Source: a virus (lineage: Duplodnaviria > Heunggongvirae > Uroviricota > Caudoviricetes). Taken from it: 37,653 nucleotides of DNA. Made by a program: the position numbers and the translations under genes. The stretch lies in the IMG/VR virus record IMGVR_UViG_2778261231_000003; one strand, written 5' to 3'. The number at the start of each line of letters is the position of its first letter. The stretch's first letter is position 1. Shown piece by piece: positions 1 to 6,808 of this stretch. The notes beneath the pieces were generated by a model that saw nothing but the letters and a program-made list of their open reading frames with translations, was not told the origin of the DNA and made no database searches.

Positions 1-128
1 CCACCGGTGAACTCAGCCCCCACCATGCCCACTGCGTTACCCTGTACCACAACGATTTAACCTGCGAAGCCGACACCCTTGGCAGTTGCGGCTACGTATA
101 CATCGCCATTTACCCCACTCAGAGTTAA
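1..128 (+). CDS. CbeA/YeeU-family antitoxin, C-terminal fragment (5' end lies outside the window)
   Basis: Frame ending at TAA 126-128 reads ...[29 protein letters not shown], matching the conserved C-terminus of CbeA/YeeU/YafW antitoxins (recalled from memory). The toxin gene starts 20 nt downstream. Confidence 0.6.
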
Positions 129-148
129 TTACCTTCACGAGAGTAAAC

Positions 149-490
149 ATGAAAACTTTACCTGCAACAACTCAGCGGGCGGCGAAGCCCTGCCTAGCAC
201 CCGTGGCTGTCTGGCAAATGCTACTGACCCGCCTGCTGAAACAGCACTATGGTCTCACCCTCAACGACACACCGTTCAGTGAGGAACGTGTTATACAGGA
301 ACATATCGATGCCGGAATCACGCTGGCTGATGCCGTGAATTTTCTGGTGGAAAAATACGAACTGGTGCGTATCGACAGGAAGGGATTTAACTGGCAGAAA
401 CAATCCCCTTATCTCCGGGCTGTAGACATTCTGCGAGCACGGCAGGCAACTGGCTTGTTGCGGCAAAGCCGTAACAACGTAGTACGATGA
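149..490 (+). CDS. cbtA: CbtA/YeeV/YkfI-family toxin (type IV toxin-antitoxin toxin)
   Basis: ORF-track product from [14 protein letters not shown]... carries the family motifs [18 protein letters not shown] and IDILRAR. The ATG at 149 (not the in-frame upstream start at 86) is chosen because it follows the antitoxin stop. Confidence 0.8.
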
Positions 491-555
491 ACATTGCGTA
501 CAACCTTCCCGATTTACATTTCTGAACTTCCTCCCTTGTTTACCTATTGCGTAAT

Positions 556-591
556 GCGCCTGCTACTACCCGGCAGGCGCGTTATCTTTTT
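556..591 (+). terminator. Rho-independent terminator downstream of the toxin gene
   Basis: GCGCCTGC (556-563), 9-nt loop, GCAGGCGC (573-580), then GTTATCTTTTT. Confidence 0.5.
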
Positions 592-871
592 ACGGACAAA
601 CAATCATGCAACCAGAAGTTGAAGTATTAACCGATCATAATGAGCTAATTTGTTCGAGCTTTATTGAACACATTGCCAACACATTAAATTTAGGAGTAGT
701 GTACAACTAAACCTGCAGCCAAGGATGTATAGTGAGCGAAGCCCTATCAGGCCTTTTTGGTCAGTAGATAAGATTGATCTTCGTTGATAGAATTTACTTA
801 CACCAGCTGTTACATTAAGATAATTTTTTGGTGGGAGAATGATAAGATCTTACGTAACAATTTGATTTTAA

Positions 872-917
872 TGGTGCCGATAATAGGAGTCGAACCTACG
901 ACCTTCGCATTACGAAT
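872..917 (-). repeat. 46-nt 3' fragment of a tRNA-Thr(CGU) gene (anticodon loop to CCA end): attachment-site remnant, not a functional tRNA
   Basis: Reverse complement of 872-917 is ATTCGTAATGCGAAGGTCGTAGGTTCGACTCCTATTATCGGCACCA (anticodon loop with CGT, T-arm GGTTCGACTCC, acceptor 3' strand, CCA). Sequence 5' of it (918 onward) cannot supply the D-arm or the 5' acceptor strand. Identity to E. coli thrW is from memory. Confidence 0.7.
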
Positions 918-1222
918 TATAAGAATCCGCTTCTAATTCAAAGCATTACCCCATCAACACTGCGCTCACACGTCCCACCACATCAAAACATGTAAAGCCT
1001 TGCAAGCCATTGCGAGGCCTTATGTGTCTCAGTTTTGTCCCACCTTGTATTACGACTTACATAGCCAATGAAGATAAACGTGACGGCAAACGGCGCAGCA
1101 GTCTTCTTTTCCTTCATACTTTCCCCACCCAGCATGCATACCTTTATGCCATAACTGAAGTTTATGTCTGTTATGAGCGAAAAGCAGACATTACACTAAA
1201 TTATTTAGGTTTACTTTTATCA

Positions 1223-2101
1223 TTACATTTCTAATGCTTTTTCTCTGCTAATTGATCCTTCACCATTGCAGGTTCTGCAATCTAATTTTATATTCCTGCA
1301 GTCAGGACAAGTGAATTTTTCATAATTAGAAAGATTCACCTTTGCAGCAATATATCTTTTTACGGATCCCATTCCATTACAGATCGGACAATCTTCTCCC
1401 GCTAAACTGCCTTTTCCATTACATAAAGGGCAAGTTACAGTGGATATCACTTCATTTTCATTTTCATTTTCATAAATAAAATTGTTGAAATTTTGGGCGT
1501 TTATTGTGCTTAGTTGAACTTTTTCAATTTTTTTTATGTGATGTTCAAAATACTTTTTAATTGCCTTCTTAAGATCCTCTTTAGACGATTTCCATTGTTC
1601 TGGTGAGATCCTAATCGATTGAAATCCTTCGTTACTAGTTATTACTGCATCACGCTTGTAAGTAGACTTAATTTTACTTTCCACATAATGAGCTATGTGG
1701 CCATCATACTCGATGCCAATAGCAGCAATCTCAACCAAATCTTGACCAATCCATCTATTTAGTCTAAGGACAAGGTCTATTGCCCAAGGCTGGGCTTTTG
1801 GGTTTATATTGCCAACCTTATACTGAGGCTCGATATAAACAATATGTCCGTTTGGGAATTGACCTTTCAGAGTTATTCGTCGTGGTGAATTTTGAAAACT
1901 ATCGATTTCCAATGGACTAAACTGAGATATGAGGCCGGCAATTACCTCTATCTCAGCCTGAGATGTTTTTTCCACTCCTTGTAAACTAATAAGACCGATA
2001 GCTACTTGACGGTTAGTGGCTGGCTCAATCCTTTTAAATAGTTTCTTCTGATTATTACTAAAATTATTTTTGATAACTTCAAGTGTTTCATCTAGTTCCA
2101 T
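1223..2101 (-). CDS. Predicted endonuclease: Vsr/DUF559-like PD-(D/E)xK core fused to a C-terminal DnaJ-type zinc finger (four CxxCxGxG motifs)
   Basis: ORF-track protein 1223..2110. Core motifs AIDLVL, GIEYDGHIAHY, KRDAVITSNEGFQSIRI follow the D...E-x-DG-x-H...RD...G pattern of Vsr/DUF559 endonucleases. C-terminus has CPLCNGKGS, CPICNGMGS, CPDCRN, CRTCNGEGS. ATG at 2101 preferred over GTG at 2110 because of a GGGTGAG Shine-Dalgarno. AT-rich codon usage. Confidence 0.55.
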   Translation of the reverse strand: MELDETLEVIKNNFSNNQKKLFKRIEPATNRQVAIGLISLQGVEKTSQAEIEVIAGLISQFSPLEIDSFQNSPRRITLKGQFPNGHIVYIEPQYKVGNINPKAQPWAIDLVLRLNRWIGQDLVEIAAIGIEYDGHIAHYVESKIKSTYKRDAVITSNEGFQSIRISPEQWKSSKEDLKKAIKKYFEHHIKKIEKVQLSTINAQNFNNFIYENENENEVISTVTCPLCNGKGSLAGEDCPICNGMGSVKRYIAAKVNLSNYEKFTCPDCRNIKLDCRTCNGEGSISREKALEM

Positions 2102-2233
2102 CTCACCCACTCTATAAACTGATTATCCATATAAACTACATTATCATTTTTAACTGCTCAACATAGATTAACATAGCGCGATGCTAACAGTGTCAACTCC
2201 TGGCACAGGGCTGTTGTTGCAGCCCTGACAACC

Positions 2234-2836
2234 TTAGACTTCAATCGATTCAGAGATCTCTAACACATCATCTACTTCAATACCCAGATAACGGACTGTG
2301 CTTTCCAGTTTCTTATGGCCCAACAGAAGTTGGATCACCCGAAGATTCTTGGTTTTCTTGTAGATCAGGTAAGGTTTTGTTCTTCTCATGGAATGAGTGC
2401 TGTAAAGCGAATCTTCGAGACCAAGCTTTTCTACCCACCCATGAAAAATTCGGTTGTATTGCCGGGTAGATATGAGCTGATTAGTTCCGACCAGAAACCG
2501 AAACAAGAAGTCTTTACTATGCAAATTGCCAAGCATTATCAATGCAGCAACAGCTTCTCTTGTCCCTTTGGTTATCTCAAACTGCACAGGGCTACCGGTT
2601 TTCTGTTGCAGCACCGTAGCTCTGCTTGAAGCAGAGCTACCATATGCAACATCAGATACTTTGAGTTTGACCAGATCACAGCCTCGTAGCTTACTGTCCA
2701 GGGCCATATCGAACTGAGCTAAATCGCGCGTTTTACCTTCCAGTTCAAGCCGGATTCGGATCCCCCAGATATGAGATATCTGAAGTGGTCTTTTTTGGCC
2801 GATGATACGGTCTTTGTTCCACGGTGACGTGTTCAT
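2234..2836 (-). CDS. Short tyrosine recombinase (catalytic domain only, ~200 aa): truncated integrase or FimB/FimE-size recombinase
   Basis: Catalytic signature visible: Arg in LRGCDL, H-x-x-R in HSMRRT, LLGH and Y in VRYLGI. Start at MNTSPW (ATG 2836) preceded by GGAGA; the ORF-track start at 2890 lacks a ribosome-binding site. Confidence 0.65.
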   Translation of the reverse strand: MNTSPWNKDRIIGQKRPLQISHIWGIRIRLELEGKTRDLAQFDMALDSKLRGCDLVKLKVSDVAYGSSASSRATVLQQKTGSPVQFEITKGTREAVAALIMLGNLHSKDFLFRFLVGTNQLISTRQYNRIFHGWVEKLGLEDSLYSTHSMRRTKPYLIYKKTKNLRVIQLLLGHKKLESTVRYLGIEVDDVLEISESIEV

Positions 2837-2872
2837 ACTCAAATCTCCTGCAATGTGGGAGATTTGAGTATG
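2834..2872. promoter_or_regulatory. Perfect 15-bp inverted repeat with 9-bp spacer overlapping the recombinase start codon and Shine-Dalgarno
   Basis: CATACTCAAATCTCC (2834-2848), spacer TGCAATGTG, GGAGATTTGAGTATG (2858-2872). Arms are exact reverse complements. Geometry resembles a recombinase core site or a translation-sequestering hairpin. Confidence 0.5.
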
Positions 2873-3042
2873 GTTGTCCCTTATGAGCAAATCGCAGACG
2901 TAACATCAAGTTCATAGCTACCCTGGAGCACCTTATTATCCTGTATAACGATAAGTTGGGAAGCCAGTGGCCTCACAGTGTCCCCAAGATGGTGGTGTCT
3001 CTGCACCAAAGATGCGCTAGTTCAAATGTTAGTAAATATAAT

Positions 3043-3954
3043 TTATATGTAATCAGGTAGTGAATTCAAAGCCATCACTCTTTCTCTTTCTTTTTCTGTC
3101 ATTTCTCTCATAACAATTTGAGATAGCGCTAATGTTATCTCCTTTGTTTTATTGAAGGCTTCTTTGGTATATGTTTTCCTTCCATACTCAAGTTCATTAA
3201 ATGTCCCCATAATCCATTTGAGATAGAATAATGGGATGGCTAGATCACTTATATCCTGCCATCTCGTAATCGCTTTATATTCATTCCAAAAATAATCCTC
3301 AAAATGCTTATCACAATCACCTTTACACGCATAATAAACCGCTATCACCTCATTTGGTTTGTCATCGTGTATGATCTCTGCATTGCACACAATGCCATCA
3401 TAATTTTCTTCATGATGGTTTTCTATTAAGTCCTTTCCACAACGATCACATTTTATAGGTAAGTACTTATCAAAAATCAAATGCTTGGGTTTTATTTTTT
3501 TATAGCTCTCAGGAAAGTATCTAAGGAGTAGTTTTGAGTAACCAATTCTGACTAAGTGATTTTCAATTAATTTACCATCAAAGAATCGAAAGTCCTTTAT
3601 TTTTCCATTCTCTTTTAATTGCGTCATTCTTGAATTTAAACCACTACTTGGCAGTGTTGAGTAAAATCCAATAAATCCGTCGGCATTGAATCCATCAATA
3701 CGTTCTTGTATATTAATCTCATCCTTTTCTGAAACTGATTTTTTACTTGTTGCATAATGTTTACAGCTAACAAGCCAACGAAATTTATATTTATTTAACT
3801 GACCTTGCAATTGCTCTGTGATTAAAAGATCTTTACCTCCATCTGCACCTCTATCTGGCGCGGATTCAATATAAAAGCCAAGTTCTTCAAGAAAATCACG
3901 GGCAAATGACTCCCAGGCTTCACCGTCACTATCAATTTCAGTAAAGTTAATCAT
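3043..3954 (-). CDS. Predicted Mrr-like (PD-(D/E)xK restriction-endonuclease fold) nuclease domain protein with Cys/His-rich C-terminal region
   Basis: N-terminus EAWESFARDFLEELGFYIESAPDRGADGGKDLLITEQ...FRWLVSCKHY fits the Mrr catalytic-domain pattern (acidic residue, D-x-G-x-D-L, Q/E-x-K). C-terminal part has CDRCGKDL...C...ACKGDCDKH. GGGAG Shine-Dalgarno 9 nt upstream of ATG 3954. Very AT-rich. Confidence 0.55.
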   Translation of the reverse strand: MINFTEIDSDGEAWESFARDFLEELGFYIESAPDRGADGGKDLLITEQLQGQLNKYKFRWLVSCKHYATSKKSVSEKDEINIQERIDGFNADGFIGFYSTLPSSGLNSRMTQLKENGKIKDFRFFDGKLIENHLVRIGYSKLLLRYFPESYKKIKPKHLIFDKYLPIKCDRCGKDLIENHHEENYDGIVCNAEIIHDDKPNEVIAVYYACKGDCDKHFEDYFWNEYKAITRWQDISDLAIPLFYLKWIMGTFNELEYGRKTYTKEAFNKTKEITLALSQIVMREMTEKERERVMALNSLPDYI

Positions 3955-4206
3955 TTGTTAACTCCCAAGCGTTGAGATATTTTTATATCTGTATTGTGGG
4001 CTTATTATAAGCGAATGTAATTATAATATCATACTAACAGACACAACTTCCGCTTCTGGTACATAGCAGACCAGAGACACTGGCGTAAAGCCATGGAGGA
4101 TCGGTGGGAGGAGGTAAAAATCCTCTCATGCAAAAAATACGCAAAATCGATAACAGTTGGAAATCATTCAATACTCGCACTATCGGAAGTTCACCAGCCA
4201 GTCGTA

Positions 4207-4240
4207 GCACGTTCTTGCATACGACGTGGCTACGGGTTTC
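4207..4240 (+). repeat. Direct repeat copy 1 (~34 bp, hairpin-capable), upstream of the GIY-YIG gene
   Basis: GCACGTTCTTGCATACGACGTGGCTACGGGTTTC; near-identical to 5226-5263 apart from 1-2 nt indels. Confidence 0.6.
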
Positions 4241-4331
4241 GAGACCGGTCCAATCATCAAACGAAACATAAAATTAATTCACATTATGAGGAAAAGTATC
4301 TTTTTTATACTATGTAAATTCAAAGGCTTAG

Positions 4332-5201
<870 letters not shown>

Positions 5202-5225
5202 GTCTTTAAGTGATAAGCATAAACC

Positions 5226-5263
5226 GCAGCACGATCTTCTTGCATACGACGTGCTACGGTTTC
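5226..5263 (+). repeat. Direct repeat copy 2, between the GIY-YIG stop and the invertase stop
   Basis: GCAGCACGATCTTCTTGCATACGACGTGCTACGGTTTC; internal inverted repeat AGCACG...CGTGCT. Overlaps the invertase stop codon (5262-5264) by 2 nt. Confidence 0.6.
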
Positions 5264-5816
5264 ATTTATCTCCGACCGGAAACTTCTTATACAGTGTCGA
5301 TATACCAACATCATAGATGATCGCCACCTTCTGGCGAGGAACGCCTGATGCAATTAATCGCCCGGCCTGCGCCCATTGTTCTGGTGTAAGTTTGGGACGA
5401 CGTCCCCCAATTCGTCCCTGTGCGCGAGCAGCTTCCAGTCCAGCTTTTGTTCGTTCAACAATCAGTTCTCGTTCCATTTCAGCCAGGGCACCCATCACAT
5501 GAAAGAAAAAACGCCCCATCGGTGTGCTGGTATCAATAGCATCCGTCAGGCTGCGAAAATTAACGCCACGTTCGCGCAACTCCTCAACCAGAATGACCAG
5601 ATGCCGCATACTACGCCCCAGCCGATCCAGCTTCCAGACAACCAGAGTGTCACCTGCCGATAATGTCCTGAGCAGTTTTTTCAGTCCCGGCCTTTCGGAC
5701 TTTGTACCGCTTATCTTGTCTTCAAAAATCAGCTCGCATCCTGCACAGTTCAGCGCATTACGTTGTAGATCTGTGTTCTGGTCATTTGTTGACACACGTA
5801 CATAGCCAATAAGCAT
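5262..5816 (-). CDS. Serine recombinase, DNA invertase of the Pin/Gin/Hin/Cin family
   Basis: N-terminus MLIGYVRVSTNDQNTDLQRNAL matches Pin/Gin invertases (from memory) and includes the catalytic serine; C-terminal HTH GVPRQKVAIIYDVGISTLYKK. GGGAGA Shine-Dalgarno upstream. Confidence 0.85.
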   Translation of the reverse strand: MLIGYVRVSTNDQNTDLQRNALNCAGCELIFEDKISGTKSERPGLKKLLRTLSAGDTLVVWKLDRLGRSMRHLVILVEELRERGVNFRSLTDAIDTSTPMGRFFFHVMGALAEMERELIVERTKAGLEAARAQGRIGGRRPKLTPEQWAQAGRLIASGVPRQKVAIIYDVGISTLYKKFPVGDK

Positions 5817-5993: not shown

Positions 5994-6383
5994 TTACTCC
6001 TTTTTCCCTGTATCGGCATCAGGTTCGCCATCAAACAGTTTGCCCTGCATCCGATCCAGTTCTTCTTTTCTGACCCGCTTCACCACGCTGTAAACCCACT
6101 GTAGTGAAACACCAAATTTGCGGGCCAGTTCGTGATGGTTGCGCCCGTCAAACTCCAGGAAAATTTCCCGGTCGCGCTGGCTGACCTTCCAGACCATGCC
6201 CATCGGAAAATAGACGTTTTGCCCACCCCAGACCTGCATCATGCGGTTCGCGACGGCCTGACCAATCTGGTCGGCAACTGCGGGTTCGATATCAATAATC
6301 TCGCGGACAGTCTCAGAGGTATGCTGTGCCAGTTCCACCAACAGTTCCGGCCCTTTACTACGAAACTGATTCAGGTCGCTCAT
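5994..6383 (-). CDS. Mor/C-family transcription activator
   Basis: GGQNVYFP and C-terminal HTH ELARKFGVSLQWVYSVVKRVR align with Mu Mor (from memory). ATG 6383 has a GGGAG Shine-Dalgarno and overlaps the GemA stop (ATGA); 129 aa. Confidence 0.8.
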   Translation of the reverse strand: MSDLNQFRSKGPELLVELAQHTSETVREIIDIEPAVADQIGQAVANRMMQVWGGQNVYFPMGMVWKVSQRDREIFLEFDGRNHHELARKFGVSLQWVYSVVKRVRKEELDRMQGKLFDGEPDADTGKKE

Positions 6384-6808
6384 TGCTTCACTCCCGCAGC
6401 TCTGCGCTGCCACTTCTTCAGTTTCTCAATCACGCTACTTGCCTGCTCATTGCTGAGCCAGCGTAACGCGCTGATGCCGGTTTCCCGTTTAACCCACAGC
6501 GCCAGCGCCTGCTCTGAACTGTCACGGACGATGCCTGCGGCAGCCATTTCAAGCCATAGCGCACGGATTTTCTTTGACTGCGGATGGCTGTCGAGCGGTA
6601 AGCCGGACTTGGCTTTCCCGGCAGGCTTAATGCGAAAGCCTTTCTTTTTCATTGATTCCAGCACGCGGTTTAGCTGTGGGGTATCCATCCCTTTGGTTGA
6701 GGCTTTGCCGGTCAGCCCCTGTAGCATCTGGCGGTAGGTGTCCTCATCCATCTGGAGGTCGCTGCGGGCAATATGAATGAGTTGAATAAGACGCTGCTTA
6801 GTCATCAT
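6380..6808 (-). CDS. GemA-like protein (Mu gp16 family, DUF1018)
   Basis: MMTKQRLIQLIHIARSDLQMDEDTYRQMLQGLTGKAS is the typical GemA N-terminus. Start at 6808 preceded by GGAG and overlapping the upstream stop; the ORF-track extension to 6997 lacks support. Confidence 0.7.
   Translation of the reverse strand: MMTKQRLIQLIHIARSDLQMDEDTYRQMLQGLTGKASTKGMDTPQLNRVLESMKKKGFRIKPAGKAKSGLPLDSHPQSKKIRALWLEMAAAGIVRDSSEQALALWVKRETGISALRWLSNEQASSVIEKLKKWQRRAAGVKQ

Follow-up and report, generated by a model that had tools for sequence, protein, structure and literature searches.

The gene and the two domains of its product

The window analysed here is the whole 37,653-nucleotide stretch of the virus record IMGVR_UViG_2778261231_000003 (Caudoviricetes). 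On its minus strand lies an uninterrupted open reading frame (ORF) for a protein of 303 residues, which joins an N-terminal Mrr-type nuclease domain to a C-terminal domain with four invariant cysteines (Table 1). The ORF is a real, intact gene, because the protein has at least 1358 full-length homologues at an expectation value (E) of 0.001 or below in a search of about 5.8 billion proteins. The best 120 relatives are all about 296–331 residues long, with alignments that cover 93–100% of the query, and full-length identity within the family is 52–60% across bacterial phyla and archaea, with 50–59% outside the Enterobacteriaceae. By our own arithmetic, in which some 7% of random codons are stops, a 303-codon open frame would arise by chance at this base composition with a probability of about 1e-10. 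The guanine-plus-cytosine (GC) content of the ORF is 33.7%, versus 56% in the window beyond 5.8 kb, and an earlier reading of the sequence alone, made with no database searches, had rightly called the gene very AT-rich. The identical protein occurs on 335 public contigs under the label "MULTISPECIES: restriction endonuclease [Enterobacteriaceae]", and near-identical copies are found in Cronobacter, Raoultella, Serratia, Morganella and Citrobacter. Expression from the gene's own promoter is predicted.

Table 1. Positions of the gene, its domains and motifs, and the surrounding features in the window
Feature	Positions	Strand	Basis or remark
303-residue protein plus stop, complete ORF, ATG start	3043-3954	-	Read from sequence; RefSeq WP_000606914.1
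Mrr/FokI-type PD-(D/E)xK nuclease domain, residues 1-153	3496-3954	-	
D38-G-G-K-D42 motif, D38 and D42 invariant	3829-3843	-	Alignment, model; aligned to GDGGID203 of E. coli Mrr
S63-C64-K65-H66, invariant, strand beta-3	3757-3768	-	Alignment, model; position of Q217-A-K219 in E. coli Mrr
E79, N81, E84, R85, invariant, after beta-3	3700-3720	-	Conservation in alignment
C-terminal domain, residues 154-303, alpha/beta Cys4 part then three helices	3046-3495	-	
C169-D-R-C172, predicted first zinc knuckle, both Cys invariant	3439-3450	-	Alignment, codons read from sequence
C210-K-G-D-C214, strand end and helix start, both Cys invariant	3313-3327	-	Alignment, model, codons
1.19-kb single-gene cassette: 117 bp upstream, ORF, 159-bp tail	2884-4071	-	Nucleotide comparison
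Predicted sigma-70-type promoter, -35 at 4027-4032, -10 at 4004-4009, 10/12 consensus matches	4004-4032	-	Best site of promoter scan
GGGAG ribosome-binding site	~3961-3966	-	
YkfI/CbtA-type toxin gene	86-490		
295-residue protein, 35.6% GC, same AT-rich block	1223-2110	-	RefSeq hypothetical
Short tyrosine recombinase, catalytic domain only, ~200 residues (FimB/FimE size), directly downstream of the 303-residue gene	2234-2890	-	
PD-T4-3, GIY-YIG (LEM-3-like) single-gene defence system	4377-5201	+	PADLOC 464 bits, full length; phrog_5356 477 bits
Serine invertase pinE	5262-5816	-	
Mu-like transposable prophage, 56-60% GC (above surroundings), directly after pinE	~5833-37653		
Mor-like ORF	5994-6413	-	

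Both the hidden Markov model match and the fold place the protein in the Mrr_cat nuclease superfamily; its S-x-K motif is atypical. Residues 10–77 match Pfam Mrr_cat (PF04471) with 24.9 bits against a gathering score of 21 (E 2.3e-5); among 40 diverse family members scanned singly, 29 match Mrr_cat at E ≤ 0.01 and essentially no other family is hit, and distant relatives with the same motifs span positions 6–111 of the 115 in the profile. The N-terminal domain has the alpha-beta-beta-beta-alpha-beta restriction-endonuclease-like fold. Its closest structural neighbours are the modification-dependent enzymes AspBHI and MspJI; the neighbours, with the two values listed for each, are 4oc8 (AspBHI; 13.1, 137), 1y88 (AF1548; 12.0, 125), 4f0p (MspJI; 10.5, 134) and 2fok (FokI; 9.8, 124). 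The Mrr-like N terminus proposed from sequence thus stands, but the domain split of roughly 70 and 230 residues that went with it does not: the boundary divides the protein at about 150/150. Sequence searches of PDB chains with the whole protein and with profiles of either domain returned noise only, an NCBIfam scan gave a sub-threshold match to the CxxC family ECs_2282 alone, and a weak PHROGs match to "RusA-like" was discounted as a generic nuclease-fold match.

In the 40-sequence alignment the invariant residues of the nuclease are E15, D38, D42, E47, W60-L-V-S63-C64-K65-H66, E79, N81, E84 and R85, followed by G93, G96, Y98-S-T100 and R109. In the model strand beta-2 begins with D42 and strand beta-3 carries S63-x-K65, both at their canonical positions, and in the profile alignment D42 falls on D203 of E. 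coli Mrr, where VYVQ217AK219 comes next. The hhalign comparison behind this correspondence aligns the right motif at negligible probability and was used for residue mapping only. The expected D/E/K catalytic residues are found in part, with D42 and K65 invariant but motif III reading S-x-K and not D/E/Q-x-K. Cfr10I and NgoMIV have S-x-K too, and there the missing carboxylate comes from a helix 16 residues later. E79 lies exactly 16 residues past S63, and E84 is on the next helix; by this analogy either could be the acidic catalytic residue in a shifted position. We propose E15, D42 and S63-x-K65 as the catalytic residues, probably aided by E79 or E84. Nuclease activity is likely but not certain, because an invariant serine stands in place of Gln, Asp or Glu and E79 or E84 would have to make up for it.

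The C-terminal domain appears, from its model, to be a putative zinc-binding alpha/beta-plus-helical domain unique to this family. Residues 154–303 modelled alone give a predicted local distance difference test score of 87.8 and a predicted template-modelling score of 0.78. In order, the model shows a CxxC knuckle (C169, C172), a short helix, a beta-hairpin, a third strand and three long helices; C210 closes the hairpin, and C214 belongs to the opening turn of the helix that follows. The Cys/His cluster read from the sequence is literally present (C169-x2-C172...C190...C210-x3-C214-x2-H217), but invariance is confined to the cysteines at 169, 172, 210 and 214; C190 and H217 vary. The Cys4 site would presumably bind zinc; its two pairs, in the knuckle and at the strand end and helix start, might form a treble-clef or zinc-ribbon site. 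Other conserved positions are H158, Y207, K211, D215, W232, D234, D237, P241, Q279, R283 and E284. An aromatic and acidic cluster (Y207, W232, D234, D237, Y244, W247, Y262) is conserved, as are basic residues at the zinc site and in the final helices (K174, K211, K269, K271, R283, R290, R292). Its mean column entropy of 1.86 bits is about double the 0.98 bits of the nuclease, a measure of its greater variability.

The sequence-only reading could not place this part of the protein, and neither could the searches. No significant Pfam match for the domain occurs in any of 38 members, its profile finds no significant match among PDB sequences, Foldseek against the viral structures of BFVD gives none at E ≤ 0.001, and comparison with solved structures yields no structural neighbour.

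Modularity, distribution and mobility

An exhaustive search with a profile of the C-terminal domain alone found 448 proteins at E ≤ 0.001 among 1.84 billion representative proteins, and architectures were judged on the best 150. Nearly all of these have the same architecture of about 300 residues or are fragments of it, and the domain's partners are DNases only; fusions to TIR, SIR2, protease, membrane or other non-nuclease effectors were not found among them. In one protein of 460 residues (P0231, on a 2.3-kb metagenomic contig) the domain is joined to an MTES_1575/DUF559 (Vsr-like) nuclease. Most of the "short" matches are fragments that start inside the nuclease domain, and an apparent response-regulator fusion (P0145) looks like a chimeric or truncated call. 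Of two seemingly standalone C-terminal domains, one (L112) lies at a contig edge and the other (L113) is a frameshifted full-length gene. This metagenomic copy (2529–3460 of its contig) breaks exactly at the DG|FIGFYST motif, so that two samples show separate "Mrr_cat" and "C-domain" calls. It represents either a pseudogene or an artefact of assembly rather than a form encoded by two genes.

The nuclease half has partners of its own. The subtype recognised by "PDRGxDGGxD...WLVSCKH...GFYST" also bears an RHH_1 DNA-binding domain (P0385; 21.6 bits, cut-off 20.5), a GNAT acetyltransferase domain (P0382) and at least three unclassified C-terminal tails; P0385, P0382, P0425 and P0359 are the proteins noted for other tails or domains. 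Because the same nuclease subtype carries such different attachments, the C-terminal position is a site of exchange in this clade, and these proteins may be part of a broader clade of small nucleases whose C-terminal modules can be exchanged.

The family is widespread but sparse. It is present in 254 of about 185,600 species-representative genomes, from Proteobacteria, Acidobacteriota, Chloroflexota, Planctomycetota, Bacteroidota, Verrucomicrobiota, Firmicutes, Fusobacteria, the Candidate Phyla Radiation and one Heimdallarchaeote, and in 13 of 5426 complete E. coli genomes and 13 of 2.9 million viral contigs. Most copies lie on chromosomes, in variable islands. A 4.9-kb mobilisable MOBQ plasmid of Acinetobacter carries a 35% homologue and no other cargo. 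The tables of Rousset et al. 2022 (PMC9122126, supplementary files 2 and 6) list another single-gene "Mrr_cat" cargo, WP_000113630, at the hotspot of P4 satellites; it might be a relative.

Clustering of the three ORFs on either side of the gene at 80 loci found no neighbour family that recurs in more than five; thus neither a partner nor a cognate methyltransferase accompanies it, and the single-gene organisation expected from the sequence is upheld. Methyltransferase families account for at most 2 of the 145 immediate neighbours. No small adjacent partner of the toxin–antitoxin type emerges from the same clustering, and the cassette described below has one ORF. The 145 neighbours are heterogeneous, with many defence genes among them: ResIII helicases, parts of Type I, IIG and IV restriction–modification systems, KwaB (Kiwa), DRT reverse transcriptases, AbiU, ThsB and PbeA. 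HigB toxins and integrases also occur. Individual loci hold GmrSD_N with HEPN, HsdR with Bro-N and AAA_23, HicAB, or a TrlF ATPase with a caspase-like protein.

Within E. coli the gene moves as a cassette of promoter plus ORF. The 1.19-kb unit is 90.7% identical to "Z-region ORF1" of phage P2-EC67 (AJ512685), where the protein, labelled "putative lysogenic conversion protein", is 90% identical and occupies the P2 Z/fun cargo slot; it is equally similar to a copy in E. coli BE2-5 that adjoins the tail-fibre assembly gene of a P2-like remnant. The -35 and -10 boxes annotated in the P2-EC67 record coincide with the promoter predicted here (4032–4004). Inverted repeats annotated around the P2-EC67 copy were not detected as an inverted pair in this window. 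The slot in the window differs from P2 Z/fun: the cassette sits in an AT-rich block between the ykfI-type toxin gene and a group formed by a capsid fragment, PD-T4-3 and pinE, beside a Mu-like prophage. Positions 1–5300 are a variable cargo slot, where the three genes of the window give way in E. coli 0H26 to two unrelated hypothetical genes for proteins of 488 and 129 residues. The low GC content, the variable slot and the mobile cassette bear out the earlier suggestion of recent horizontal acquisition. A functional link between the gene and its immediate neighbours was considered and rejected, because the cassette occurs elsewhere without them.

Possible function of the protein and competing explanations

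We infer a defence phenotype, nuclease activity, zinc binding and a recognition target for the C-terminal domain, and we hold with moderate confidence that the protein is a one-gene defence nuclease whose C-terminal zinc domain targets or gates it. A solitary mobile nuclease with no methyltransferase or immunity gene must recognise something that its host lacks, or stay off until triggered. In the mechanism we propose, a self-contained one-protein DNase would move as a promoter-plus-ORF cassette between the cargo slots of prophages and islands. Its C-terminal domain would supply target recognition or gating, most likely through contact with nucleic acid, and the nuclease would then cut invading DNA. 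Host DNA would be spared since the recognised feature, whether a modification, a structure or a state, would be absent from it, with no need for protection by a methyltransferase.

A standalone DNase of the defence type has the best support; its standalone character rests on the lack of a recurring neighbour and of a methyltransferase, on the shared cassette and on the single-cargo Acinetobacter plasmid. A defence-type role is probable from context, namely the adjacent PD-T4-3 gene, the slot that varies in 0H26, the defence genes near relatives elsewhere and the sparse spread across phyla. We lean towards nucleic-acid-directed targeting or gating on four points: the attachment of the C-terminal domain to DNases only, the RHH domain at the corresponding place in a relative, very high conservation across phyla and the conserved basic residues.

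Several observations pull the other way. No family in PADLOC-DB 2.0 matches the protein at E ≤ 1. The literature and supplements searched (including the DefensePredictor, metagenomic-selection and Rousset 2022 tables) contain no mention of the family's phenotype, accession or motifs, although prior characterisation is still possible. The C-terminal domain is net acidic (mean -3.6) and matches none of the known folds that read DNA or modified bases (SRA, winged helix, PUA/EVE/ASCH, SBD), so that direct recognition of DNA by it is weakened. Motif III has an invariant serine at the place of Gln in Mrr and of Asp or Glu elsewhere, so that activity is not guaranteed. The argument from attachment to DNases draws on a single fusion to an alternative nuclease (P0231), and the evidence from defence neighbourhoods is qualitative.

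The acidity of the C-terminal domain and its lack of a reader fold, together with its faster evolution, leave room for an enzyme activated by a trigger, as in abortive infection: the domain would sense a phage protein or small molecule and free an autoinhibited nuclease, which would degrade DNA indiscriminately, that of the host included. High full-length identity across bacterial phyla and archaea is, however, hard to square with the sensing of one phage protein; the domain is found among the best 150 matches on DNases and never on TIR, SIR2, protease or membrane effectors, and conserved basic residues are concentrated around the zinc site and in the final helices. We consider this explanation unlikely. 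The same two properties, acidity and the missing fold, count against a classical Type IV modification-dependent enzyme analogous to Mrr, MspJI or PvuRts1I, in which the C-terminal domain would read hydroxymethylcytosine, its glucosylated form or non-host methylation. This narrower version of the targeting proposal gains from the nearest structural neighbours of the nuclease, AspBHI and MspJI, from the solitary action with no cognate methyltransferase, and from a size and plan of nuclease plus second domain that resemble DpnI and PvuRts1I/AbaSI; the aromatic and acidic cluster could, moreover, form a base-binding pocket. We regard it as a tentative possibility.

The protein might instead have no part in defence, serving a selfish or maintenance function as an addiction or exclusion nuclease or a helper in recombination or repair, or being a catalytically dead restriction-endonuclease fold that only binds. 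Loss of the acidic or Gln residue of motif III fits this notion, as do sub-threshold matches of two shorter relatives to the "inactive restriction endonuclease" family NA-iREase1, carriage by phages and small plasmids, and the wording of the AJ512685 record, which says nothing beyond lysogenic conversion. Yet the invariance of E15, D42, K65, H66, E79 and E84 across phyla is what selection on an active site would produce, no antitoxin-like neighbour is conserved, the gene sits mostly in variable chromosomal islands and is rare on viral contigs, and the spread is too sparse for a housekeeping role. We judge such a function quite improbable. Beyond the one-gene defence nuclease that we favour lies a bolder claim, which we put forward as doubtful: that the Cys4 domain reads nucleic acid or a modification by means of a new fold and is perhaps portable between Mrr-like and Vsr-like nucleases, and that with the S-x-K Mrr nuclease it defines an unnamed pan-prokaryotic one-gene restriction or defence family with a specificity outside known Type IV.

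In sequence the protein is unrelated to any named system found. It may work like the single-chain modification-dependent enzymes (DpnI, PvuRts1I/AbaSI, MspJI/AspBHI, Mrr), although membership of that group is not demonstrable. DpnI and PvuRts1I/AbaSI share with it a length of about 250–320 residues, an N-terminal nuclease, a C-terminal second domain and a solitary habit with no methyltransferase. As readers, however, DpnI has a winged helix and PvuRts1I/AbaSI an SRA-like domain, and PvuRts1I cuts with a Vsr-like nuclease, whereas the Cys4 domain has no structural neighbour. In Mrr, MspJI, AspBHI and FokI the nuclease is C-terminal, and their winged-helix or SRA-like readers are unrelated to the Cys4 domain; Mrr_cat and FokI-type enzymes also have Q/E/D-x-K at motif III in contrast to the invariant S-x-K-H of this family. 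Cfr10I and NgoMIV, which share S-x-K, are Type II enzymes with cognate methyltransferases and a different overall architecture. PD-T4-3 offers a parallel in organisation, being one gene with its own promoter in a low-GC cargo slot of prophages or islands, but it belongs to the GIY-YIG superfamily and has a PADLOC model, unlike this PD-(D/E)xK family.

The family is large, strongly conserved and unnamed, although a nuclease joined to a sensor is itself a familiar theme. If it is active, a compact and broadly distributed single-gene nuclease, for which current tools say just "restriction endonuclease", would join the defence catalogue, and the C-terminal domain would be a new recognition or regulation module. 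Should that domain read a DNA modification or structure, the enzyme might become a reagent, as MspJI, AbaSI and DpnI did. One long-unexplained cargo gene of the P2 Z/fun slot thereby gains a proposed function, and the cassette exemplifies a promoter-plus-gene unit that hops between prophage hotspots.

Other genes of the window

The defence activity of the adjacent PD-T4-3 system was reportedly validated by experiment in the original study. Its start in RefSeq relatives lies about 50 codons downstream of the first TTG. The recombinase directly downstream of the 303-residue gene, foreseen in the sequence-only reading, matches tyrosine-type DNA invertases weakly in NCBIfam; its 5' end has a perfect 15-nt inverted repeat (2834–2848 and 2858–2872), and the left edge of the cassette (2884) abuts it. 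The Mu-like prophage after pinE shares 99% identity with Escherichia phage Phi06_2974 B and 96% with Klebsiella phage KP12; in strain 30EVA1 tail-fibre genes follow pinE instead.

The 295-residue protein of the AT-rich block is a second candidate for a nuclease with a zinc finger. It has a weak match to the MTES_1575 restriction-endonuclease family at residues 107–184 and DnaJ-type CxxCxGxG zinc-finger repeats at residues 227–285, and it partially matches PADLOC PDC-M01B (53.6 bits) over the C-terminal third of the model.
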